Virus record (IMG/VR): IMGVR_UViG_3300045988_030968
Span: 1 to 44,150 of that record
Source of the DNA: a virus
Taxonomy: Duplodnaviria; Heunggongvirae; Uroviricota; Caudoviricetes
Strand: one strand, 5' to 3'
DNA: 44,150 bases
The notes under the pieces were generated by a model. That model was not told the DNA's origin. It saw only the letters and a program-made list of their open reading frames with translations, and searched no databases. A program made the position numbers and the translations under genes. Below are positions 5,022 to 44,150 of the stretch, in pieces; within the stretch, counting starts at the first letter, position 1; each line of letters begins with the position of its first letter.

Positions 5022-5336
5022 TTATAATTCCTTATATTGTTGGGGTATGTGCTTACTATAATAGTCCGCTATTAAGGTGTCAACCTGTTTAAACGAACCA
5101 ACGACAAAAACATCCGCACCGCGTTTACGCATCCGCTCGTGCTCTCGTAACTGGTGCGGGTCAGGCTTCGTATTTTCGTCTTTCTTAACTTCGACAAACC
5201 ATATGATGCCGCCGGGGAGAATTACCAGCAGGTCGGGAGCGCCGGAGCGCCCCTCGTACGACAGCTTACGAACTAGGCCCCCCAGGGCCTCGAACCTCTC
5301 TTTTGCATATTTCTGTACGCGGCCCTCTTTAGTCAT
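5022..5336 (-). CDS. VRR-NUC domain nuclease (PD-(D/E)xK)
   Basis: Motifs GAPDLLVILPGG and FVEVKKDENTKPDPHQLREHE; start set at ATG 5336 which overlaps upstream stop (ATGA). Confidence 0.7.
   Translation of the reverse strand: MTKEGRVQKYAKERFEALGGLVRKLSYEGRSGAPDLLVILPGGIIWFVEVKKDENTKPDPHQLREHERMRKRGADVFVVGSFKQVDTLIADYYSKHIPQQYKEL
5055..5083 (-). promoter_or_regulatory. Sigma70-type promoter with palindromic operator, embedded in 3' end of VRR-NUC CDS
   Basis: Minus strand TTGACA, 17-bp spacer, TATAGT; spacer contains TAATAG-N4-CTATTA. Confidence 0.5.
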
Positions 5337-5479
5337 GAGCGTAGGACCCAAGTAAGGAAAGCCCCTCCTAGAACGGCAACACCGACAAACTTAAAGAACA
5401 GGCCATAACAGAACATCGCGGCTATCCCCGCACCGAGCAACAGTGCGGACATGGTTACTATCGTCCAAAATACAAACAT
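5333..5479 (-). CDS. Small membrane protein (48 aa, two hydrophobic segments)
   Basis: MFVFWTIVTMSALLLGAGIAAMFCYGLFFKFVGVAVLGGAFLTWVLRS; stop overlaps VRR-NUC ATG. Confidence 0.4.
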   Translation of the reverse strand: MFVFWTIVTMSALLLGAGIAAMFCYGLFFKFVGVAVLGGAFLTWVLRS

Positions 5480-8153: not shown

Positions 8154-8173
8154 TATTTTTGACCCTTAGTAAA

Positions 8174-8195
8174 AAGGCCCAATGAAGGGCCTTAG
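8174..8195 (-). terminator. Terminator/attenuator between SSB-like gene and DNA polymerase gene
   Basis: AAGGCCC-N5-GGGCCTT hairpin followed by T-run on minus strand. Confidence 0.4.
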
Positions 8196-8212
8196 TTAAA
8201 TTGATTCAGATA

Positions 8213-8892: not shown

Positions 8893-8922
8893 ACTATAAT
8901 AGTTTGCTATTCAGGATGTCAA
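8893..8922 (-). promoter_or_regulatory. Sigma70-type promoter with palindromic operator, upstream of SSB-like gene
   Basis: Minus strand TTGACA, 17-18 bp spacer, TATAGT; spacer contains TGAATAG-N4-CTATTA. Confidence 0.5.
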
Positions 8923-11608: not shown

Positions 11609-11638
11609 ACTATAATAGCGAACTATTCATGATGTCAA
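11609..11638 (-). promoter_or_regulatory. Sigma70-type promoter with palindromic operator, divergent from HTH gene
   Basis: Minus strand TTGACA, 17-18 bp spacer, TATAGT; spacer contains TGAATAG-N4-CTATTA. Confidence 0.5.
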
Positions 11639-11702
11639 TGGGCTTTTATTAAATAATTAATATGGTACTATTCACATATCAACTGACTAAGGAGTAATTG
11701 AC

Positions 11703-11918
11703 ATGCAACCATCTGAACTAGGCATCCGTGTAGAACAACGCCGTAAAGAACTTGGCATCTCACAGCGCCGTCTGGCTGTCCTTGCCGGCGTTTCTCAGGG
11801 CGCGATTAACCAGCTGGCACTTGGGGTAACTCAGGACGTCCGACCGGCGACGCTGTTTAAACTGGCGGAGGTGCTTGAAGTAGATGCCAAGTGGCTGGCG
11901 TTCGGTGAAGGGGCTTAA
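11703..11918 (+). CDS. Cro/XRE-family helix-turn-helix transcriptional regulator
   Basis: 71 aa; LGISQRRLAVLAGVSQGAINQLALG HTH; AAGGAG 8 nt before ATG; preceded by TGgTACTAT extended -10. Confidence 0.8.
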   Translation: MQPSELGIRVEQRRKELGISQRRLAVLAGVSQGAINQLALGVTQDVRPATLFKLAEVLEVDAKWLAFGEGA

Positions 11919-11933
11919 CGCCCCTTTCTTTTT
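11908..11933 (+). terminator. Rho-independent terminator after HTH gene
   Basis: GGGGC-TTAAC-GCCCC hairpin (stop codon in loop) followed by TTTCTTTTT. Confidence 0.6.
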
Positions 11934-14390: not shown

Positions 14391-14603
14391 TTACTTAACG
14401 CCAGCAATCCACGCACGCTCTGAAGTGTAGAAACGACACTTACTTAACGACTCGATTGGCATCTTAATAATCCGTGTTGTCCCTGAAAAATAATCAGGTT
14501 TGCATATTTCTGCGTAGAAACCGCTGTCAGTAATTTCTGATGCAAACTTAAACCGGTATTTAACTTTACCGTTTTCAAAGTAACAACCCATACGTCCAAT
14601 CAT
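14391..14603 (-). CDS. Hypothetical protein (70 aa)
   Basis: ORF with ATG start, overlaps upstream gene stop. Confidence 0.5.
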   Translation of the reverse strand: MIGRMGCYFENGKVKYRFKFASEITDSGFYAEICKPDYFSGTTRIIKMPIESLSKCRFYTSERAWIAGVK

Positions 14604-14782
14604 TTCACGTTCTCCTTAATCCACGCTTCAACTTTATTACGGTCAAATGTACCAGGTAAACGGCGACCCATAACCTTAATACAACAGTCAGGGAATTTAC
14701 CACTGCGTAACCAGTTATTAATTGTCTGACGTGTCACCCCGATACGCTCGGCTACTTCATTCTGCGTCATGTAATGTTGCAT
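14600..14782 (-). CDS. Small HTH DNA-binding protein (AlpA/excisionase-like fold)
   Basis: Start set at ATG 14782 with AGGAG upstream; MTQNEVAERIGVTRQTINNWLRSGKFP. Confidence 0.55.
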   Translation of the reverse strand: MQHYMTQNEVAERIGVTRQTINNWLRSGKFPDCCIKVMGRRLPGTFDRNKVEAWIKENVK

Positions 14783-14889: not shown

Positions 14890-14918
14890 TTGACTTTTAC
14901 TAAGAAATATGGTAAGCT
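14890..14918 (+). promoter_or_regulatory. Conserved promoter core, copy 1 (TTGACT-17-TAAGCT with TGg extended -10)
   Basis: Near-identical to 27337-27365. Confidence 0.45.
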
Positions 14919-15140
14919 CAGCCTGAGCTTGTGAAGTATGAACGAGCGACCGCGGCGCGCGGCAGGCGAAACGAGCACGTGTAGCGTGTGGAGTGAGGCT
15001 CGCTAGCGCGTTTGGGAGGCCCAAAGTCTATTGTAATTCCCACCTAAATATCTAAGTTACTGATTCGCCGTAAGTTATATCCGCAAGCTCACTCACTCAC
15101 TCTTGGTGCCTTCGGCACCACGTTCGTTTCGTTTCGCTCG
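14919..15140 (+). ncRNA. Candidate conserved leader / structured non-coding element, copy 1
   Basis: ORF-free; first ~60 nt conserved with 27366-27425; inverted repeat AGCTCAG-C-CTGAGCT, (CTCA)3, hairpin GGTGCC-TTCG-GCACC at 15105-15119. Confidence 0.25.
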
Positions 15141-15186: not shown

Positions 15187-15215
15187 TTGCACACCCCAAC
15201 ATAATAGGATACTAT
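15187..15215 (+). promoter_or_regulatory. Conserved promoter, copy D1 (TTGCAC-17-TACTAT with AATAG-N4-CTATT operator)
   Basis: 33-bp element repeated at 16599, 27238(-) and 36138(-); about 35 nt upstream of ATG 15250. Confidence 0.5.
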
Positions 15216-15249
15216 TCACTTATTGAAACAAGACAGAGGGGTGAGGGTT

Positions 15250-15644: not shown

Positions 15645-15903
15645 CGCTGAACTGGAAAAAGTCTCTGACACCCTTCATAAGGTACGGGTCATGCGCCGGG
15701 GTGCCGGGCTGGAGCAGTTTTATAACATGTGGCGCACAGCGACGCGCGACCCTGAGTTTCTGCGGACAGGTTATTATTTCATTAAAGGCGTTATTCCGAT
15801 TCGCGCCCGCGGGGATTACGGTTGGGTGCGCGAGACACCTAATCTTATGTGGTGTTGGTACTGCGGTGAGTTTTGGGTGCGCGTTAAAGAGAAGATGGGG
15901 TGA
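15637..15903 (+). CDS. Hypothetical small protein
   Basis: Overlapping start/stop with neighbours. Confidence 0.5.
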   Translation: MNNAELEKVSDTLHKVRVMRRGAGLEQFYNMWRTATRDPEFLRTGYYFIKGVIPIRARGDYGWVRETPNLMWCWYCGEFWVRVKEKMG

Positions 15904-16409: not shown

Positions 16410-16619
16410 ATGATTACTAGAGAACAGGCTGAACGACTAATCGCGTTAATCGACACGATGGTTGATGTAAAAACCGATTCAGCAACGGCAACAGAGGAAC
16501 TCGCTACTTGGTCGCTTGAAGAAAGAGAAGCAGAAGCGGAGCGCGAGTTACTGGCGTTCATCGACTCTATCACACACACACACACAAATAAAATTTACTT
16601 GCACGCTAAGATAGAATAG
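16410..16619 (+). CDS. Hypothetical small protein
   Basis: 69 aa; contains (CA)8 tract near 3' end. Confidence 0.5.
   Translation: MITREQAERLIALIDTMVDVKTDSATATEELATWSLEEREAEAERELLAFIDSITHTHTNKIYLHAKIE
16571..16586. repeat. (CA)8 dinucleotide microsatellite
   Basis: CACACACACACACACA encoding THTHT at the C-terminus of ORF 16410..16619. Confidence 0.9.
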
Positions 16620-16627
16620 GCTACTAT
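16599..16627 (+). promoter_or_regulatory. Conserved promoter, copy D2 (TTGCAC-17-TACTAT)
   Basis: TTGCACgctaagATAGAATAGGcTACTATTCA matches D1 pattern; about 32 nt upstream of ATG 16659. Confidence 0.45.
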
Positions 16628-16658
16628 TCATTTACACAAACGAGAGGAGAGACAGAAG

Positions 16659-19579: not shown

Positions 19580-19599
19580 CTATCCTATGTAATGACTAG

Positions 19600-19628
19600 T
19601 TGACTATTACTTACGACCCTACTATATT
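19600..19628 (+). promoter_or_regulatory. Sigma70-type promoter
   Basis: TTGACT, 17-bp spacer, TATATT; about 34 nt upstream of ATG 19662. Confidence 0.5.
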
Positions 19629-25327: not shown

Positions 25328-25363
25328 GTTCACATATAGCCCCGAAAGGGGCTTTCTTATAGT

Positions 25364-26440
25364 ATGCTATTAACTTTAGCACCACAGGGTTTATCTATGA
25401 GCTTACTTACATCCCTAATCAGCCACCAGATATGGCTGCAACGCACCGCATCCGGTGAAGTGAAAGACCTCGCGCCGTTTCTTCAGGAAATGAGGGGCGA
25501 AATAAAACGGCAGGTGCTGTTATTCGGCGACGACGGGCGAAGCACTGCGCGTCTGAATAAACTGTTACGCGACCTTGAAGAAGCACTAACCGGGCTTACA
25601 GGTGACTGGCAAGCAAAACTGGCAGAAGACCTCAAGGAACTGGCAGCGTATGAGGCCGAGTGGAACACAAAGACACTGGCAGCCAACGTTAACGCGGAAT
25701 TTGTTACGCCTACCGCTGAACAGGTGTGGGCCGCCGCCGAGTTTCAACCCTTATCATTAAGCGACAAGCCGGTCGATTTCACTAAGCTGATGTCTGGCTG
25801 GGGTGAAACGGAGGTCGCGCGCCTGGTAACTGGCGTTAAGATGGGTTTCGTTCAAGGCCAAACCACACGGCAGATTGTTAAGAATGTCGTAGGCGCTGGC
25901 GGACTGGCCGACATCTCTGAGCGCAACGCCGCTACGGTAATCCGCACCGCGCTATCTCACGTGTCCAACGAAGCCCGCAACGAGACGTACCGCCAGAACG
26001 ACGACATCATCGAGAAATATGAATGGGTGTCTACGCTTGATAGCCGTACCAGCACGATTTGCAGAGCCAGAGACGGAATGACATGGGAAATTGGTAAAGG
26101 GCCGATGCCCCCAGCCCATCCGAATTGTCGGTCGTGCACGGCTCCGGTAATCAGTTCCGAGTTCGACTTCCTCGATAAAGGCGCAAAACGCGCGGCTAAG
26201 GGCGCGAACGGCGGTACTCAGGTAAGCGCGGACACCACTTACTACGAGTTCCTGAAACAACAACCGGCATGGTTTCAGGATGAAGCACTCGGTCCTGTTC
26301 GCGGTAAGATTTTCCGTAACAGCGGTATATCGCCGGAAGAGTTTCGCGTAATATCTGTAGATGGTTTCGGGAATCCGCTCACGCTTAAGCAGATGGCGGA
26401 ACTCGATAAACGTGTTGCTGATTATCTGAAAGGGGATTAA
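25364..26440 (+). CDS. Head morphogenesis protein (Mu F / SPP1 gp7-like minor head protein)
   Basis: Conserved C-terminal region STLDSRTSTICRARDGMTW...HPNCRSC. Confidence 0.7.
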   Translation: MLLTLAPQGLSMSLLTSLISHQIWLQRTASGEVKDLAPFLQEMRGEIKRQVLLFGDDGRSTARLNKLLRDLEEALTGLTGDWQAKLAEDLKELAAYEAEWNTKTLAANVNAEFVTPTAEQVWAAAEFQPLSLSDKPVDFTKLMSGWGETEVARLVTGVKMGFVQGQTTRQIVKNVVGAGGLADISERNAATVIRTALSHVSNEARNETYRQNDDIIEKYEWVSTLDSRTSTICRARDGMTWEIGKGPMPPAHPNCRSCTAPVISSEFDFLDKGAKRAAKGANGGTQVSADTTYYEFLKQQPAWFQDEALGPVRGKIFRNSGISPEEFRVISVDGFGNPLTLKQMAELDKRVADYLKGD

Positions 26441-26901
26441 TGATGGGCTTTTTCAAAGTAACTGACGTACCGTCGCGTCGCGTAGTCCAGTACGCCCGCG
26501 TGTCTGGCTCTGGTGAGAATGTGGTGTTTATTGAAGATGAAAGTGTACTAGGTACACCGGTAGACGATATGCCGTTTGCGGATAAGACCGGTATTGCGCT
26601 ACCAGCGGCGGGCATGCTTTATGAGATTCCGTATCTGGCTGATGCTGGCGACGTGTATTTCTCTGAGCAACCGCAGGACACCGAACTGACAGACGGCAGT
26701 GCAACTCTCACTGTCGAAGTTAAAGCTGGTAAAGCACCATATGCGCTGACCTGGTACAAAGATGGTAAGGAAGTGGTCAACGCCCCAGAAGAGGCTTTGT
26801 CTCTGACGGTTAATGCGGTAGGGGAATACTTCGTTAAAGTTACCGATGCCGGTGGTGTGGAGGCTGTCAGCAAAGCGGCGAAGGTCACTAAGCCAGAATG
26901 A
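26440..26901 (+). CDS. Ig-like domain protein
   Basis: C-terminal TLTVEVKAGKAPYALTWYKDGKEV; paralogous motif in 29983..30324. Confidence 0.5.
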   Translation: MMGFFKVTDVPSRRVVQYARVSGSGENVVFIEDESVLGTPVDDMPFADKTGIALPAAGMLYEIPYLADAGDVYFSEQPQDTELTDGSATLTVEVKAGKAPYALTWYKDGKEVVNAPEEALSLTVNAVGEYFVKVTDAGGVEAVSKAAKVTKPE

Positions 26902-26904
26902 TAA

Positions 26905-26933
26905 AAGGCCCCTTCCGGGGCCTTAGTTTTATT
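26905..26933. terminator. Bidirectional terminator
   Basis: AAGGCCCC-TTCC-GGGGCCTT with T-runs on both strands; overlaps stop of minus-strand gene. Confidence 0.6.
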
Positions 26934-27213
26934 GCTTTCCTAATGCTTTCTTGATCGCGCTGTTTGCCAGATTTAATGGATGGTCTTCATGGCAATCCTC
27001 GGGAGATACCGCGCAAACATCCTCAACGTAATCGCGAAGCTGGCGAAGTGCTTCAAGTAACTCTGGTGCAGAGGAAATAAGTTTTGTGTTAGCCAATTTT
27101 ACTGAGTCCTTTTCCCTCATACTCATTACCTCCGCCACATAAACATCACCCGCCCAGATAGCAGTTCCGCGATTAACCCATGCACCGTCTGTACCTTTAA
27201 ATTCGTGTGTCAT
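26929..27213 (-). CDS. Reverse-oriented accessory (moron) gene, hypothetical 94-aa protein
   Basis: ATG 27213 with AGGAG upstream; own promoter (27238-27270) and terminator; opposite to flanking structural genes. Confidence 0.6.
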   Translation of the reverse strand: MTHEFKGTDGAWVNRGTAIWAGDVYVAEVMSMREKDSVKLANTKLISSAPELLEALRQLRDYVEDVCAVSPEDCHEDHPLNLANSAIKKALGKQ

Positions 27214-27237: not shown

Positions 27238-27270
27238 CTGAATAGTACCCTATTATGTTGGGGTGTGCAA
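27238..27270 (-). promoter_or_regulatory. Conserved promoter, copy E (minus-strand TTGCAC-17-TACTAT)
   Basis: Reverse complement matches D1 at about 30 of 33 positions. Confidence 0.5.
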
Positions 27271-27336
27271 ACTATTTGTTTATGTATTCCAGTTATTCCA
27301 CTCAATTGTAAATGTTGGAATAAACTATTCGAATAG

Positions 27337-27365
27337 TTGACTTTTCACTGAAAATATGGTAAGCT
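27337..27365 (+). promoter_or_regulatory. Conserved promoter core, copy 2 (TTGACT-17-TAAGCT with TGg)
   Basis: Near-identical to 14890-14918. Confidence 0.45.
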
Positions 27366-27573
27366 CCACCTGAGCTTGTGAAGTATGAACAAGCGACCGC
27401 GGCGCGGGCAGGTAACGGAGCGGGACGTAAGTCCTGAGTGTAGTTACGCTGACGCGTTCGGAAGGGCCATAGGCTATTGCTTGTGTAAAAAGTAACTGGT
27501 TTACTGAGATTACGCCGTTTCTGTGTTTAAATGATAAGGACTAACGCCCCGCTTTATGGCGGGGCTTTACTTA
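27366..27573 (+). ncRNA. Candidate conserved leader, copy 2, ending in terminator-like hairpin
   Basis: ORF-free; 5' part conserved with copy 1; GCCCCGC-TTTATG-GCGGGGC plus TTTACTTAT at 27545-27573, just before the spanin RBS. Confidence 0.25.
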
Positions 27574-33327: not shown

Positions 33328-34496
33328 ATATGGCTACAACTCCTTTTAAGGGCGCGACTACCGCGCAATTCTATGTGGCGGAAGTCACCCCGGGCGTAAC
33401 ACCGGCTAACCCTGTCTGGTCGCCGTTGCGTAACACTGGCGGTGTTCCTGCTATCACCCGCGACACGCTGACCTCCAACGAACTGGACGGCAGCCGTGAA
33501 ACTACATCCATCCGCACCGGTAACAAACAGGTTAGCGGTGAATACGCGATCGAGCTTAGCTCGAAAAGCCAGGACGACTGGCTGGCGGGTGCTTTAGGCT
33601 CTACGTGGCAATCAGGTGTATCCTTGACTGACCTGTCAATTACCGTCGCACCGGCGGGCAAGACGTTCACCCGTGCTGATGGCAGCTTTATTTCTGATGG
33701 CGTTGAAGTAGGCGACCTGATCGCGTTCACCGACTTAACGGGCGACAACGCTAAACCGTTCATCGTAACCGAGGTAAGTGCGACTGTTGTCACAGGCGCC
33801 GGCATCCAACATACTCTGACCACTGAGACCGTAACAACCGACGCTAAAACCGGCGACAAACTGGAAACTGGTAACGCGTGTAAGACGTTCTCTATCCTCA
33901 CCTGGTACAAAGGCCAGTGCGGCGGGGCCGACGCGTACACGCTAACCAAAGGCGTGGAAGTTTCCGGTTTTACCGTGGAGCAGGCCGTTAACGCGATGGT
34001 AACGGGCAGCTTCCCGTTCATCGGGCGCAGCCAGGAGATTCTCGCGACGCCGCCGTCTGGTTCTGACTTCTCCTCTGTTACGTTTACTGATGAGCCGTTC
34101 TCCTCGGTCGACGTTTCTGTGTTCGACGGTTCTACGCCGTTGCGTTGCGATAGCCTGACCATCACCAACGACAACAGTGCATCCGCGCAGTTCGAACTTG
34201 GCAACACTAACGTGGCCTTTGTGGAACGTAGCCGCGCGGCTAACACCTTCTCCATCTCTGGTAAACTGTACGACATGGCGATGATTCAGAAGTTTATCAA
34301 CGAGCAGCAGGTAGAGATTAACTCTATTCTGGCTGGGGTAAACGGGGCTATGTCTTTCAGTTTGAAACGTGCAGAGCTTACGGCGGTTACACCTGAGATT
34401 GGCGGGCCTGAGTCAATCACTCAGAGCATAGAAGGACAGTCCACAGGCAATCAATATCAATCCTCTATCGTAATTCAGCGTATCACCTACGCATAA
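33324..34496 (+). CDS. Major tail protein
   Basis: 390 aa, Thr/Ser/Gly-rich; upstream of chaperone and tape measure genes. Confidence 0.6.
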   Translation: MNMATTPFKGATTAQFYVAEVTPGVTPANPVWSPLRNTGGVPAITRDTLTSNELDGSRETTSIRTGNKQVSGEYAIELSSKSQDDWLAGALGSTWQSGVSLTDLSITVAPAGKTFTRADGSFISDGVEVGDLIAFTDLTGDNAKPFIVTEVSATVVTGAGIQHTLTTETVTTDAKTGDKLETGNACKTFSILTWYKGQCGGADAYTLTKGVEVSGFTVEQAVNAMVTGSFPFIGRSQEILATPPSGSDFSSVTFTDEPFSSVDVSVFDGSTPLRCDSLTITNDNSASAQFELGNTNVAFVERSRAANTFSISGKLYDMAMIQKFINEQQVEINSILAGVNGAMSFSLKRAELTAVTPEIGGPESITQSIEGQSTGNQYQSSIVIQRITYA

Positions 34497-34500
34497 AACT

Positions 34501-34525
34501 AAGGCCCCGAAAGGGGCCTTTTCTT
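34501..34525. terminator. Bidirectional terminator
   Basis: AAGGCCCC-GAAA-GGGGCCTT with T-runs on both strands. Confidence 0.65.
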
Positions 34526-34754
34526 ACTCATCAATATTGCTTCGATACTCCCGTAACTTCTCCAGACTTTCAATTGCTTCTGCTAAGTCGGTCCCGGTGT
34601 CCTTGTGGCCGCGCAAGCCCATACACAATAGCTTCTTCAATGCGTGCTGTAGCGCCGGGTCGCGGATATCGAAGGCGCGTAGCACGTCATAAACGTCTAC
34701 TGCCATAGTGCTGCCGTGAGTGTTTGTCATTGTGCGGTTATATTTTGAAGTCAT
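34524..34754 (-). CDS. Hypothetical small protein, last gene of reverse-oriented cassette
   Basis: 76 aa; ATG overlaps upstream stop (ATGA). Confidence 0.5.
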   Translation of the reverse strand: MTSKYNRTMTNTHGSTMAVDVYDVLRAFDIRDPALQHALKKLLCMGLRGHKDTGTDLAEAIESLEKLREYRSNIDE

Positions 34755-35881
34755 CCCAGCATCTCCGGTGAAATAGTTAAACGTGCGACCTCGCCGTATT
34801 CGGCGCTATAAGTAATTACGTTTGCACTGCGGCCTGACATCCATCCGCCGCGGGAGGCGTAGGCGTCTTTAGCCGCTAAGGTGCGGTGTTGCTCAACAAT
34901 CATGTTACGGCTTTCTACAATCTTCTGGTGATGCAGGTGGCCTACGTGAGCGTAGCTGTACTCGCTTTCCCCGAATGCTTTTCTGAACTTAGATATCATA
35001 ATTGGTTCGACCACCTCAAACCGACATTTATGACCATGTGTGAAGAACAGCGTCGTTTTGCCGTGGCGCACCATCTTGTACACATCCGGCGACGTATCAA
35101 CGAACACACGCGGCTCGTTGTCATACAGCGTACTGAACATCTCCGCTAACCAAATCATACCCGATTCGTCGTGGTTTCCTTGCACGATAAGCAAGCGAAC
35201 ATTTTTATGCTTAACCAGAGCCATATCAACAACACGGCGCACCATACGAATCATGTAGCGCACCAGTTTCTGATAGCGGGTGTCCGCATCAAGAATATGA
35301 CCACTCGCTGGCGTAACGGCATCAAGACTATCGAAGTGCGCGAGGTCGCCAAGCAGGTTAATAACCCCAGTTCCCGCGTCCGGTGCTTTCTGAAATGCAG
35401 CATCGAACCAGCGAGAAAACAGGTCTTCAGCAATCTTCATATCCCAGTCGTCGCCGCTTTCATCGGCCCAGGCCAGCATACCGAGATGGAAATCAGATAC
35501 CGTGTAAAGATTGAGTAGTTTATCGTCGCGTTTAGCCCGAATGGCTTTAACAGGAGCAACGGGGGTAATCTCCGACTTCATCCCTTCGATTACGGCTTTC
35601 ATCAACTCTACCTGACGTTCGGCATCGGTGTCGGTCTTAACCCATTGCAGCTTAGTGTTGCCGAACTCGTCCACAAGTGACGACGTGCCTTTAATCTTGT
35701 AGCCGTCTGGTACAAGGTGACTAACGTCGCGCCCGTGGCCCACGCCTTTCTTTGCCAGCTTCGCTTTACGGATACGAATAACGCGGTCTGAGATGCCGTA
35801 TTTACGGGCGATATCGATATTCTTCATCCCGGCGTTCAATTCTTCCTGTAACTGTTCGTCGGTTATTTTCTTCTGGGCCAT
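34751..35881 (-). CDS. HTH-containing calcineurin-like metallophosphoesterase
   Basis: 376 aa; N-terminal HTH KNIDIARKYGISDRVIRIRKAKL; phosphoesterase motifs DFH, GDLAHFD, GNHDE, THGH, GHLHH. Confidence 0.6.
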   Translation of the reverse strand: MAQKKITDEQLQEELNAGMKNIDIARKYGISDRVIRIRKAKLAKKGVGHGRDVSHLVPDGYKIKGTSSLVDEFGNTKLQWVKTDTDAERQVELMKAVIEGMKSEITPVAPVKAIRAKRDDKLLNLYTVSDFHLGMLAWADESGDDWDMKIAEDLFSRWFDAAFQKAPDAGTGVINLLGDLAHFDSLDAVTPASGHILDADTRYQKLVRYMIRMVRRVVDMALVKHKNVRLLIVQGNHDESGMIWLAEMFSTLYDNEPRVFVDTSPDVYKMVRHGKTTLFFTHGHKCRFEVVEPIMISKFRKAFGESEYSYAHVGHLHHQKIVESRNMIVEQHRTLAAKDAYASRGGWMSGRSANVITYSAEYGEVARLTISPEMLG

Positions 35882-35919
35882 GCTTACTTCCTCGTGTTTA
35901 GGATTTGTCCTATGCTAGC

Positions 35920-36111
35920 TCACTTCTCGTTAACATTCGAGTTGCACGCCCAGATTAAAATAAAGACCCACGGCAGCAGAACCCAACCAAGAAACAGATT
36001 AGCCGTGAATATCGCCAACTTCGCTTTATGGTTGCGGAAATACGCAACCAGGAAAGGCGCGAAATAAGCGAGAAGTGCAAACAGAATTAAGGAAACTGGT
36101 AAACTGGACAT
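35920..36111 (-). CDS. Superinfection immunity protein (T4 Imm-like small membrane protein)
   Basis: Start at ATG 36111 after AAGGGG; LILFALLAYFAPFLVAYFRNHKAKLAIFTANLFLGWVLLPWVFILIW matches Imm-family pattern. Confidence 0.6.
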   Translation of the reverse strand: MSSLPVSLILFALLAYFAPFLVAYFRNHKAKLAIFTANLFLGWVLLPWVFILIWACNSNVNEK

Positions 36112-36137
36112 TTTAAACCCCTTCATTGTTGGTGTAA

Positions 36138-36170
36138 GTGAATAGTACCCTATTATATTGGGGTGTGCAA
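36138..36170 (-). promoter_or_regulatory. Conserved promoter, copy F (minus-strand TTGCAC-17-TACTAT)
   Basis: Differs from copy E at 2 of 33 positions. Confidence 0.5.
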
Positions 36171-36277: not shown

Positions 36278-36694
36278 ATGAAACTTTCTGATTTTTATTT
36301 CGAAGAGAAAGCACTGGTAGGCAAGAAGATGCCGATTCTGCTGCCGAATGGTGAAGACTCCGGTGAGTGGCTTAACGTTGTAAGCCCTGATGCTGATGCC
36401 GCTGTTAAAGCTGGTCGTGCTTTCATTATTGCGTACCGTCGCGGGTTGGCGCGTTTCGAAGAACTGGAAAAAGTCGCCAAAGAAACCGGCGACTATACTG
36501 AATATAACCTGGCGGTTAACGAACTGGCGGAAGACCTCAACCGACAACTCGCGGCAGAAGTCGTAAACGGCTGGAGCTTTGACGAGCCTTTCTCTAAGGA
36601 AGCGTTTAACAAATTGCTCGACCAGTTCAAGGCATTAGGTACACAGGTAGCAGCGTTCCATAACGCTGAGCGCAAAGCATTACAGGAAAAGTAG
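36278..36694 (+). CDS. Tail assembly chaperone (gpG-like)
   Basis: 138 aa directly upstream of tape measure gene; ends at slippery GGAAAAG. Confidence 0.65.
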   Translation: MKLSDFYFEEKALVGKKMPILLPNGEDSGEWLNVVSPDADAAVKAGRAFIIAYRRGLARFEELEKVAKETGDYTEYNLAVNELAEDLNRQLAAEVVNGWSFDEPFSKEAFNKLLDQFKALGTQVAAFHNAERKALQEK

Positions 36695-41855: not shown

Positions 41856-44150
41856 ATGCCGATGGAGTTTGTCGTTAACCACATTCCCGACGGCGTACCT
41901 GTACGCGTCTACCTCGGCGAGATTGGCGATGATACTGATGTCACCGACGACTTCGACGCGCTTAAAGACGAAGACGCTGTGTACCACATTATTGAGGGTG
42001 CTGGTGGTGGCATCGGCGACGCTATCGGGAGTGTATTCAGTTTCATCCTTAAGCCAATTGCCAAGTTGTTCGGGCTTAACACCGCGGCTAACGCGAATTA
42101 TTCTGCTACCAACAACCAGGCTACGTCGCCTAACAACAGTCTCACCGACCGCTCAAACAAACCCCGTCCTTATGAGCGCTCCTATGATATATGCGGGACA
42201 GTGCAGACTATCCCCAATGACCTGATGCAGACGTATAAGGTGTTTAATGCCGCAGGGGCGCTTATTGAATACGCATACTATGACGCCGGTCGAGGGTATC
42301 TGCATATTGAGGAAGACGGTGTAACCGAGGCAGATACCAGAATCAGCGAGATAACTGGCTCGTCGGTGACGGTATATTCTCCTTACACTTCGCCGAATAA
42401 TACCAGCGCCCCACAATTGCATATCGGCGACCCGATAGACCAGAAGTTGTACATTACATTTAAAAATGCCGATGTCGATGGCGCTGTTCTTCCTGCGCCT
42501 AATGACATCGCGATAGACGTCGCTCTGTATACTGTACAACGGCAGGGCCCAACAGGCATTGTCGTTGGTAGTGATGCCGGTTTTGACGAAATAATTTCAG
42601 TAGGTGACTTGGTCTATTTTGACAACGTCTACGCAGATACGACTCCAACCTATCAAGGCGATGAAGTTAACCTGGATGGTCGCTATACGGTACTTTCAGT
42701 GAGCGAGACCACACTTATCGTTGATATAAGCCCAAATCAATCGGTATGGAACCAAATAGGAACCGCCCAATGGGAAATAGACGCCAACGTAGGTAATCAT
42801 CTTATCGGCCCGGCGGACACTTACGCGGCTTCTCTCTCTGAATGGGCGTACATCACCCGCGGTACTGTCGACCGTGTTGTAGCCAATGTCGCCGCCAGCA
42901 ACGGCATGTATAAATACAACGGCGATTATAATCGTGCCTCCGTAACGGTGGAACTGCAATACCAGATGGTGGACGAATTGAAACAGCCCGTTGGCGATAT
43001 ATTCACCGTGCAAGGCACTGTTACAGGGAGAAACACTGATTACACTGGTATCACCTTATATGGTAGTTTGCCTACTGCTTCCCGATTCCGCGCCCGTATG
43101 CGTCGTGTTTCTGACACCGATAAAGATTTTGAGGGTACTGTTAGTGACGAGGTTACTTTCACTAATCTGTACGGGCAGTCACTGGATACAACCCCGCACT
43201 ACGGCAACCGCACTACCGTACACTGCGCTCGTAAACAAACGCCACGTGCCGCGGAGGTGTCCGAACCGGAACTACGCATGATTGCTACCGAGATGTGCTA
43301 CAAATACCTCGGAAATGGCGTATTCGATACGGCAATGACACCGAACACTCAGGCCGTGCAGTCACTAATCCGCTTGGCTCGCGACCCCGCGGTGGGTAAT
43401 CTGGAACTGACAACGGCAAACATGGACAAGTTACTCGCCGTTCAGGAAGAAATTGAGTCTTATTTTGGTAGTAAATTAGCTGGACAATTCTGCTACACGT
43501 TCGACGATTACGACACAACTATGCAGGACATTGTTCAGACCATAGCGGAAGCCGTGTTCTGTACAGCGTACCGTAAAGGTGCAGATATTATGCTGCGATT
43601 CGACCGTCCGGTCGCGGGGCCGGAGATGGTGTTCACTCACCGCAGCAAAACGACCGGTACAGAGAAATGGACGCGCACGTTCAACGATTCGACAACCTAC
43701 GATAGCCTGTCGTTCTCGTACATCGACCCGGATACGAACGTACAGGAGACAATTTATATCCCGGAAGAACTCGGTGCAAATACCGAGGAGTACGAATCGA
43801 AGGGCGTGCGCAATTATCAGCAGGCTTACTGGCAGGCGTGGCGTCGATATCAGCGCAACACGTTAAGTAAAGTTGTCGTAGAGTTCGAAGCTACTGAAGA
43901 AGGGGCGCTCGCTACACCCGGCGGCGTAATCAGCGTGGTTAAAGGTTCACGTATTGCTCCGCAGGATGGTTATGTTGTTGCCGTTAATGGGCTTACGCTG
44001 ACGCTGTCGCAGCCGGTTATGTTCACCCCCGGCGACGACCACTCCATCATCCTCAAGAAGCGCGATGGCTCGGTGCAGAGTATCTCCGTTATCAAAGGAA
44101 GCCACGACCGCGAAGTGATTATGCTCTCTGCACCGGAGGAGGCAATCTAC
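41856..44150 (+). CDS. J-like central tail fibre / tail tip protein, 5' part (continues into 1..265)
   Basis: Frame open from ATG 41856 to window end and in phase with ORF 20..265; Gly-rich hydrophobic N-terminal segment; no stop in window so absent from ORF track. Confidence 0.6.
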   Translation, partial: MPMEFVVNHIPDGVPVRVYLGEIGDDTDVTDDFDALKDEDAVYHIIEGAGGGIGDAIGSVFSFILKPIAKLFGLNTAANANYSATNNQATSPNNSLTDRSNKPRPYERSYDICGTVQTIPNDLMQTYKVFNAAGALIEYAYYDAGRGYLHIEEDGVTEADTRISEITGSSVTVYSPYTSPNNTSAPQLHIGDPIDQKLYITFKNADVDGAVLPAPNDIAIDVALYTVQRQGPTGIVVGSDAGFDEIISVGDLVYFDNVYADTTPTYQGDEVNLDGRYTVLSVSETTLIVDISPNQSVWNQIGTAQWEIDANVGNHLIGPADTYAASLSEWAYITRGTVDRVVANVAASNGMYKYNGDYNRASVTVELQYQMVDELKQPVGDIFTVQGTVTGRNTDYTGITLYGSLPTASRFRARMRRVSDTDKDFEGTVSDEVTFTNLYGQSLDTTPHYGNRTTVHCARKQTPRAAEVSEPELRMIATEMCYKYLGNGVFDTAMTPNTQAVQSLIRLARDPAVGNLELTTANMDKLLAVQEEIESYFGSKLAGQFCYTFDDYDTTMQDIVQTIAEAVFCTAYRKGADIMLRFDRPVAGPEMVFTHRSKTTGTEKWTRTFNDSTTYDSLSFSYIDPDTNVQETIYIPEELGANTEEYESKGVRNYQQAYWQAWRRYQRNTLSKVVVEFEATEEGALATPGGVISVVKGSRIAPQDGYVVAVNGLTLTLSQPVMFTPGDDHSIILKKRDGSVQSISVIKGSHDREVIMLSAPEEAIY
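44096..44150. repeat. 55-bp direct repeat identical to 1-55
   Basis: Exact identity. Confidence 0.9.

Follow-up and report, generated by a model that had tools for sequence, protein, structure and literature searches.

A 14-bp dyad, AATAG-N4-CTATT, recurs at about 11 sites in the genome of a Kagunavirus-like phage, and we propose, with a probability of roughly 0.55, that it is the operator of a 434-Cro-like protein encoded by the same phage, shared by three classes of predicted promoters and by the promoter of the protein's own gene. We infer binding, transcription, repression, and timing from the sites and their statistics, registers, and conservation, together with the family and fold of the protein.

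The window (i.e., the whole stretch of DNA that was analyzed, 44,150 nucleotides) is the complete genome of a siphophage that is Kagunavirus-like (Guernseyvirinae). Positions 1-55 recur exactly, as a direct repeat of 55 bp, at 44096-44150; this is an assembly overlap, and the genome is circular or circularly permuted, with a length of ~44,095 bp. In a megablast search with an 8-kb test stretch, many Escherichia phages matched at ~89% identity over 60-74% of the stretch, with Salmonella Jerseyviruses more distant, and the gene order agrees with that of the annotated relatives Bas73, KMB36, G AB-2017, and Ent2. A scan of the whole window against Rfam at gathering thresholds gave zero matches, so the repeats correspond to no known RNA element. 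The features discussed below are collected in Table 1.

Table 1. Features of the window; promoters are predicted from sequence, and dyad positions are given with the promoter that carries them.
Feature	Position	Strand	Remarks
Leftward replication genes	2.3-14.8 kb		
Divergent region	near 15 kb		GC skew flips there too
Rightward small genes and lysis genes	15.2-19.5 kb		
Packaging, head, and tail genes		rightward	Broken by two short leftward blocks
Class B promoter TTGACA-N17-TATAGT	5055..5083	-	Dyad 5060-5073; inside 3' end of Holliday-junction resolvase gene (5022-5351)
Class B promoter TTGACA-N18-TATAGT	8893..8922	-	Dyad 8898-8911; upstream of Gp2.5-like ssDNA-binding protein and DNA polymerase genes
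Class B promoter TTGACA-N18-TATAGT	11609..11638	-	Dyad 11614-11627 in spacer; divergent from HTH gene
Predicted promoter of HTH gene	11659..11674	+	One-mismatch dyad AATATGGTACTATT over -10 (TACTAT 11666-11671, preceded by TGg)
Cro/C1-type HTH protein, 71 aa	11703..11918	+	Proposed dyad binder; followed by terminator 11907-11927
Xis/HTH_17-like small DNA-binding protein	14603..14782	-	Rival candidate binder
Class A copy 1	15187..15218	+	-35 TTGCAC 15187-15192; dyad AATAGGATACTATT 15203-15216; -10 TACTAT 15210-15215
Class A copy 2	16599..16630	+	Hexamers and dyad as in copy 1 (dyad 16615-16628); 5' spacer different
Class C promoter TTGACT-N17-TATATT	19595..19628	+	One-mismatch dyad ACTAGTTGACTATT (19595-19608) over -35
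94-aa cargo gene (phrog_1273)	26929..27213	-	Followed by bidirectional terminator 26905-26924
Class A copy 3	27239..27270	-	Dyad 27241-27254; heads moron cassette
Class C promoter TTGACT-N17-TAAGCT	27332..27365	+	One-mismatch dyad AATAGTTGACTTTT (27332-27345) over -35; start of D1b element
Reverse block	34524..36126	-	Ends at bidirectional terminator 34501-34520
76-aa ORF	34524-34754	-	
SbcD-like DNA repair exonuclease	34751-35881	-	
Superinfection-immunity-like (Imm) membrane protein	35920-36126	-	Likely start 36111
Class A copy 4	36139..36170	-	Dyad 36141-36154; heads reverse block in tail module

A 14-bp dyad in three promoter registers

An earlier note on this DNA had taken a 33-bp promoter element, present four times, as the repeated unit. 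The unit that recurs is instead the 14-bp dyad, which is found at about 11 sites, in three registers, and also in the three strongest sigma-70-like promoters of the genome. AATAG-N4-CTATT occurs exactly seven times (starting at 5060, 8898, 11614, 15203, 16615, 27241, and 36141), where 0.05 occurrences are expected, and four more times with one mismatch (11659, 19595, 25358, and 27332). It is the commonest 5+5 palindrome in the genome, ahead of the terminator hairpins. The earlier note had missed the exact dyads in the leftward promoters (5060, 8898, and 11614) as well as the one-mismatch dyads at 19595, 27332, and 25358. Each promoter carries a single site, except for the pair 11614/11659, whose members lie 45 bp apart.

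Hereafter, we refer to the promoters as class A, B, or C according to the position of the dyad, whose center lies at ~-12.5, ~-18.5, and ~-33.5, respectively. The class C value was counted from coordinates, and the other two come from automatic two-strand promoter scoring, which is noisy for class A and was used for register estimates only. Because the dyad keeps its symmetry while shifting against the hexamers, it is an element separate from the -35 and the -10. All three positions would occlude RNA polymerase and are classic positions for a repressor. A hairpin or other RNA role for the dyad was considered and rejected, since the dyad lies upstream of the predicted starts and a 5-bp AT-rich stem would presumably be unstable.

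Class A comprises the sequence TTGCAC-N17-TACTAT, which the earlier note had reported four times and which we found exactly four times, at 15187-15215(+), 16599-16627(+), 27242-27270(-), and 36142-36170(-). The count stays at four when one mismatch is allowed, and shuffled sequences contained on average 0.16 copies, with four or more in 0 of 100 shuffles. The palindrome AATAG-N4-CTATT overlaps the -10 in all four copies, as had been claimed. A conserved spacer, also claimed for all four, is present in the copies at 15187, 27270, and 36170, which differ by at most one base over 32 nt and whose similarity extends over 36-46 nt; it does not extend to the copy at 16599, which has only the two hexamers and AATAGGnTACTATTCA in common with the others and differs in the 5' half of the spacer. 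Between the end of the -10 and the start codon lie 34, 31, and 28 nt in the copies at 15187, 16599, and 27270, and in the 36170 copy either 15 nt (ATG 36126) or 30 nt (ATG 36111), where the latter ATG, which has a GAAGGGG ribosome-binding site, is the likelier start as judged from the sequence. The 15187 copy precedes ATG 15250, the first gene of the rightward small-gene cluster, and the 16599 copy precedes ATG 16659, at the head of a unit that extends through an HslV-like peptidase, holins, and an endolysin.

Against the sigma-70 consensus, class A hexamers score 3/6 and 4/6 (7/12), which is weak and lies under the threshold of the scanner. Among 70 unique class A copies, however weak their match, the TTG of the -35 and T1, A2, and T6 of the -10 are invariant. 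The class A 32-mer occurs at 408 places in 207 phage records, all within this phage group. Both in sequence and in comparison with relatives, the four copies resemble promoters and precede genes, as the earlier note had held, and they are most likely sigma-70-type promoters of one family for the host RNA polymerase. A (CA)8 run (16571-16586), absent from the homologous copies in other loci, lies in the 3' end of ORF 16410-16619 and closely precedes the 16599 promoter. On the strand opposite class A, at 36141-36160(+) and 27241-27260(+), we noted CCCTATTAT(A/G)T, the same -10 context as in the late promoter at 19617-19628. The reverse-oriented class A copies might fire rightward too, for example for the tail chaperone operon at 36278, for which there is no other candidate promoter.

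The class B promoters are the three best sigma-70 matches genome-wide (11/12), and they precede the leftward replication genes for exonuclease, ssDNA-binding protein, DNA polymerase, and helicase. When 19 unique class B copies were compared along with the 70 class A copies, hexamers and half-sites were near-invariant and the dyad center and 5' spacer were variable. Near-invariant half-sites around a variable center form the pattern of an operator whose center is not contacted. Upstream of the HTH gene, the partial copy AATATGGTACTATTCA that the earlier note had pointed out is indeed present (11659-11674), and its dyad is a putative autoregulatory site of that gene.

The class C promoters are the two late ones: the one at 19595 is upstream of small genes, terminase, and head genes, and the one at 27332 is upstream of spanin and late structural (capsid/tail) genes. 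Abutting the -35 of the latter is a perfect 12-bp palindrome, CTATTCGAATAG (27325-27336), in which the same half-sites are inverted and joined without a gap. The remaining one-mismatch dyad, TATAGTATGCTATT (25358-25371), is centered on the annotated ATG of a head-morphogenesis gene. It follows the terminator 25338-25353 directly, no ribosome-binding site is visible there, and the other three complete Kagunavirus genomes have conserved it.

Conservation of the dyad and a symmetric half-site switch

To follow the dyad through relatives, we used annotated genomes and 80 IMG/VR loci anchored on the HTH gene; these replaced an IMG/VR scan for ATAATAG-N4-CTATTCA, which had returned mostly chance matches in unrelated contigs and fragmentary loci. 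In three further genomes of Kagunavirus, the dyad is present at the orthologous sites, with six to seven exact copies each, as it is in the Jerseyvirus Ent2, with four exact copies plus near copies. A Serratia relative has one exact dyad, and Cornellvirus SP-031 has none. Wherever the HTH protein is at least 51% identical to that of the window (Kagunavirus, locus L159, and Jerseyvirus), at least two exact dyads are present (46/46 loci), and in all 46 the dyad is the top AT-rich palindrome. Among the 20 loci tabulated with an HTH protein of at most 49% identity, 17 lack the dyad and 3 have one copy. These distant loci are mostly without the dyad yet retain the orthologous divergent promoter pair, which argues that the dyad is an added operator and not a part of polymerase recognition. 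By sequence and by comparison, the palindrome behaves as an operator would, in line with the earlier note, which had read its arrangement as that expected for a repressor operator.

One distant locus, L170, showed a symmetric change of the half-sites. Its HTH protein is 44% identical to that of the window, with the recognition helix TQGGIGHI, and its dyad reads AATAC-N4-GTATT, i.e., both half-sites have changed together. This variant sits at the orthologous leftward promoter, over the -10 in front of the locus's own HTH gene, and in one more promoter. L202, a temperate element that is unrelated, has the AATAC dyad too, in the intergenic region of a divergent cro-like/cI-like pair whose HTH_3 proteins have recognition helices (SQGTIGHI and SQGAISHI) similar to that of L170. 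At the orthologous late promoter, each lineage differs from its own dyad by one mismatch: ACTAG..CTATT in Kagunavirus, AATAG..CTAGT in Jerseyvirus, and AATAC..CTATT in L170. To judge from these sequences, the late-promoter site looks like a maintained weak site.

Other palindromes were considered in the more distant HTH groups. TAAGA-N4-TCTTA was rejected as an alternative dyad, as its copies lie mostly in coding sequence and are not promoter-associated. GAATAA-N-TTATTC occurs in three copies in Cornellvirus SP-031, one of which is a start-codon/signal-peptide coincidence.

The HTH protein and its competitor as candidate dyad binders

The product of the HTH gene matches Pfam HTH_3 (E = 2e-12), and its best match in the PDB is 434 Cro, over the full length (phmmer, E = 5e-7). 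An AF2 model (pLDDT 84) has five helices, and its best Foldseek matches are 2cro and 1pra (434 Cro/repressor), with TM scores of 0.73-0.79 at 36-40% identity. The gene was found in 7/7 complete genomes compared. In Bas73 (locus L119, PQ850603.1), it lies at 34027-34239, is 96% identical to that of the window, and is unannotated; the record instead annotates a 31-aa ORF on the strand opposite the gene.

In phage 434, the operators are dyads of 14 bp whose outer 4 bp are conserved and whose center varies. The system described here resembles 434 in several respects: the protein has the same length as 434 Cro (71 aa) and shares its HTH_3 family and fold; the sites, like the 434 OR/OL sites (ACAA-N6-TTGT), are 14-bp dyads with conserved outer bases and a variable center that overlap promoters, here predicted ones; and one predicted site lies on the regulator's own promoter. 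It differs in that the phage of the window has no cI partner, no integrase, and no tripartite OR/OL arrangement, and in that single sites are spread over ~11 promoters genome-wide in a phage regarded as virulent. The half-site is also different (AATAG), and the binder is proposed here from sequence and fold. Of the syntenic relatives Bas73, KMB36, G AB-2017, and Ent2, none has an annotated cI-like or integrase gene. According to two genome papers, on fBC-Eco01 and Golestan, lysogeny genes are absent (PMC9825357, PMC7203180).

The dyad might instead be the operator of another factor, either a host transcription factor or the Xis/HTH_17-like protein, the latter maybe as an activator or an AlpA/Q-like loader at class A promoters. 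The Xis-like protein, which has an HTH_17 match and weak MerR-type matches, accompanies the dyad in the majority of Kagunavirus and Jerseyvirus loci, is missing from lineages that have no dyad, and, at 82% identity between the two genera, is better conserved than the HTH protein. The weak class A hexamers would suit activation, and a switch made of two HTH genes has been put forward as a speculation (PMC8790156). Across loci, both candidates track the dyad, and only two loci, L142 and L151, separate them. These two have an HTH protein that is 97% identical to that of the window and retain three to six exact dyads, but they have unrelated genes in place of the Xis-like gene, so the Xis-like protein is dispensable as a dyad binder. 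The variant dyads of L170 and L202 likewise go with Cro/CI-type HTH proteins and with no Xis-like ORF. Activation is also hard to fit to the promoters: those of class B are near-consensus (11/12) and do not need an activator, and a dyad at -12.5 or within a 17- to 18-bp spacer is not in the position of a MerR-kind activator. MerR-type activation uses spacers of 19-20 bp. A host factor, for its part, would not explain the lineage-specific G-to-C switch. For these reasons, we regard a reader other than the HTH protein as unlikely.

The Xis-like gene is the first of the leftward unit, and its own promoter is without a dyad. In L142 (3624-4209) and L151 (12559-13144), this gene and its neighbor are replaced by genes for a 47-aa CxxC...CxxC (zinc-finger-like) protein and a 149-aa protein, which shows that the first genes of the leftward early unit are exchangeable.

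By sequence and by comparison among loci, the HTH protein, already suggested as the repressor in the earlier note, is the best candidate for the dyad binder, given the loci L142 and L151, the switch in L170, the late-promoter sites, and the likeness to 434 Cro. Two observations speak against it. Between Kagunavirus and Jerseyvirus, four of the eight recognition-helix positions differ (SQGAINQL vs SQSLITHL) despite an identical operator. Cornellvirus-like phages retain an HTH homolog and have no recognizable dyad, which means that this HTH family is not always accompanied by the regulon.

The dyad and the published promoter motif

The motif itself is already in print, and the operator reading describes a familiar kind of circuit. 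In fBC-Eco01, PHIRE returned seven 20-mers (PP1-PP7) with the consensus tgAATAGTa-ccTATTat-T, which were labeled "phage RNAP promoters" (PMC9825357), and seven PHIRE promoters were also listed for Golestan (PMC7203180). The fBC-Eco01 consensus is the reverse complement of the dyad core in the window; all of PP1-PP7 fit it, and PP5 is of the HTH-promoter type. That paper ascribed the motif to a phage-encoded RNA polymerase and contains no operator, regulator, or register analysis (PMC9825357). The literature searched contained neither a study of operators or regulators nor a mapping of transcripts for the subfamily, and no transcription-start, expression, or binding data for Guernseyvirinae phages.

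The PHIRE label corresponds to a second alternative, in which the dyad is an intrinsic promoter signal, read by a phage polymerase or a phage-modified host polymerase, or consists of the back-to-back -10s of bidirectional promoters. Some sites lend themselves to such a reading. In class A, a -10-like hexamer is found in one half-site (TACTAT) and another on the opposite strand (TATTAT), and part of the class A symmetry could indeed come from opposed elements of this kind; the Ent2 site at 15796 allows a reading as a pair of opposed promoters with the dyad in common; and CCCTATTATAT serves as the -10 region of the late promoter. However, the window has no RNA polymerase gene among its ORFs of >400 aa, every one of which is otherwise assigned (tailspike, helicases, DNA polymerase, exonuclease, helicase-primase, terminase, tape measure, and tail proteins), and none is annotated in the relatives. 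With no RNA polymerase encoded, the label "phage RNAP promoter" cannot be right. The dyad moreover stands in three registers relative to good sigma-70 hexamers, neither half-site coincides with the -10 in class B, orthologous promoters persist without it in distant relatives, and the G/C switch in L170, being symmetric, suggests that the reader is a dimer. An intrinsic signal is very unlikely.

Class A copies at the borders of variable genes

The earlier note had assigned the class A copies at 27270 and 36170 to two reverse-oriented insertions. This holds for 27270, which heads a true accessory cassette, and does not hold for 36170, where the block is conserved from Kagunavirus to Jerseyvirus and, being shared by two genera, is no recent insertion. 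At 27270, the promoter and the 94-aa gene are both absent from KMB36, G AB-2017, and Ent2, the same promoter is followed at this site by an unrelated gene in Bas73, and the 94-aa gene is found in only 19 phage records. The predicted promoter, gene, and terminator, on the strand opposite to their surroundings, form a moron cassette. Among relatives, variation in the 36170 block is confined to the first gene and to additional cargo.

At class A positions, the promoter and leader are constant and the first gene is variable, which suggests that the cassettes serve as recombination borders. The 27270 cassette is like a lambdoid moron in that it lies on the opposite strand, is variably present, and has its own predicted promoter and terminator. 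It is unlike one in that the cassette promoters carry the phage's own operator, such that the cargo would share the regulation of the early genes, whereas a moron is expressed from a repressed prophage. A conserved class A promoter and leader flanking variable genes are also reminiscent of T4-type PeSL elements, although no stem-loop partner was identified at the class A cassettes.

One might go further and regard class A identity as a matter of recombination linkers altogether, i.e., of mobile promoter cassettes bordering variable genes with regulation as a secondary feature. The near-identity of three copies over 32-46 nt, including spacer bases without an assigned function, would fit this, as would the variation of the first gene after a shared promoter and leader (the 16599-type copy is followed by at least 10 different starts), the unrelated cargo of Bas73 at the 27270 site, and the rarity of the 27270 cargo, which is shared with Skatevirus-type phages. 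As a full account, this is nevertheless improbable: it leaves unexplained both the dyad in class B and C promoters, which have no other sequence in common with class A, and the lineage-specific half-site switch, and it can hold alongside the operator model instead of competing with it.

Proposed circuit and possible uses

In the operator model, host RNA polymerase would start at the class A and class B promoters and at the HTH promoter early in infection. As the Cro-like dimer accumulates, it would occupy the perfect dyads and block RNA polymerase, thereby turning down the rightward early and lysis genes, the leftward replication genes, and the two reverse blocks, and, more weakly, the transcription of its own gene. 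The imperfect class C sites would leave late transcription running for longer. Repression of late promoters through these sites is hard to rationalize unless the sites are truly weak. Duplication or recombination has probably spread the three near-identical class A copies in the form of promoter cassettes, and a gene that comes to lie behind such a copy would join the same regulon.

Guernseyvirinae are classed as strictly virulent. A single-repressor regulon, in which one Cro-like protein with operators on essentially all early and middle promoters can silence an incoming genome, might give them an episomal carrier or pseudolysogenic state with superinfection immunity, a possibility that we consider decidedly doubtful. 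If true, cargo captured behind class A promoters would join the silencing regulon automatically. For the Jerseyvirus SGP-C, an anecdotal report describes plaques that are turbid and "lysogens" that are immune and possibly episomal (PMC8790156).

One 14-bp operator on almost all promoters, together with a probable 434-Cro-like reader, amounts to a testable regulon map, and the operator reading sets right the label "phage RNA polymerase promoter" under which the motif was published. Cocktails for therapy and biocontrol commonly include Kagunavirus and Jerseyvirus phages, which also offer a small chassis for phage engineering. Class A cassettes would provide well-defined, regulated promoters for the insertion of payloads, and over-expression of the HTH repressor might confer immunity or a carrier state. 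The gain is one of annotation and usability more than of principle.

Other noncoding elements

Two paralogous noncoding elements, which we call D1, lie at 14890-15135(+) and 27337-27572(+) and are ~73% identical over ~180 nt. Each has a strong extended -10 promoter, TTGACT-N17-TAAGCT, at its start and an intrinsic terminator at its end (15104-15120 and 27546-27565, respectively), and one of the two closely precedes the spanin/late structural operon. When 12 unique copies from Kagunavirus were folded to a consensus, 26 pairs resulted, 6 of them with compensatory double changes, and the elements belong to no Rfam family. Their layout of promoter, structured RNA, terminator, and long operon recalls a cis-acting antitermination RNA (HK022 put) or a small RNA. 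Back to back over both D1 promoters, the minus strand carries the promoter-like sequence TTCACA-N18-CATATT, at 14906-14935(-) and 27353-27382(-), and the D1 promoters may be bidirectional. The site at 14935 would then drive the Xis-like gene and the helicase-primase unit, both of which are without a dyad.

A family of bidirectional terminator hairpins of near-identical sequence, AAGGCCCC-N4-GGGGCCTT flanked on either side by T-tracts, was found at 2272-2303, 8172-8206, 26897-26928, and 34493-34524, where convergent transcription units meet.
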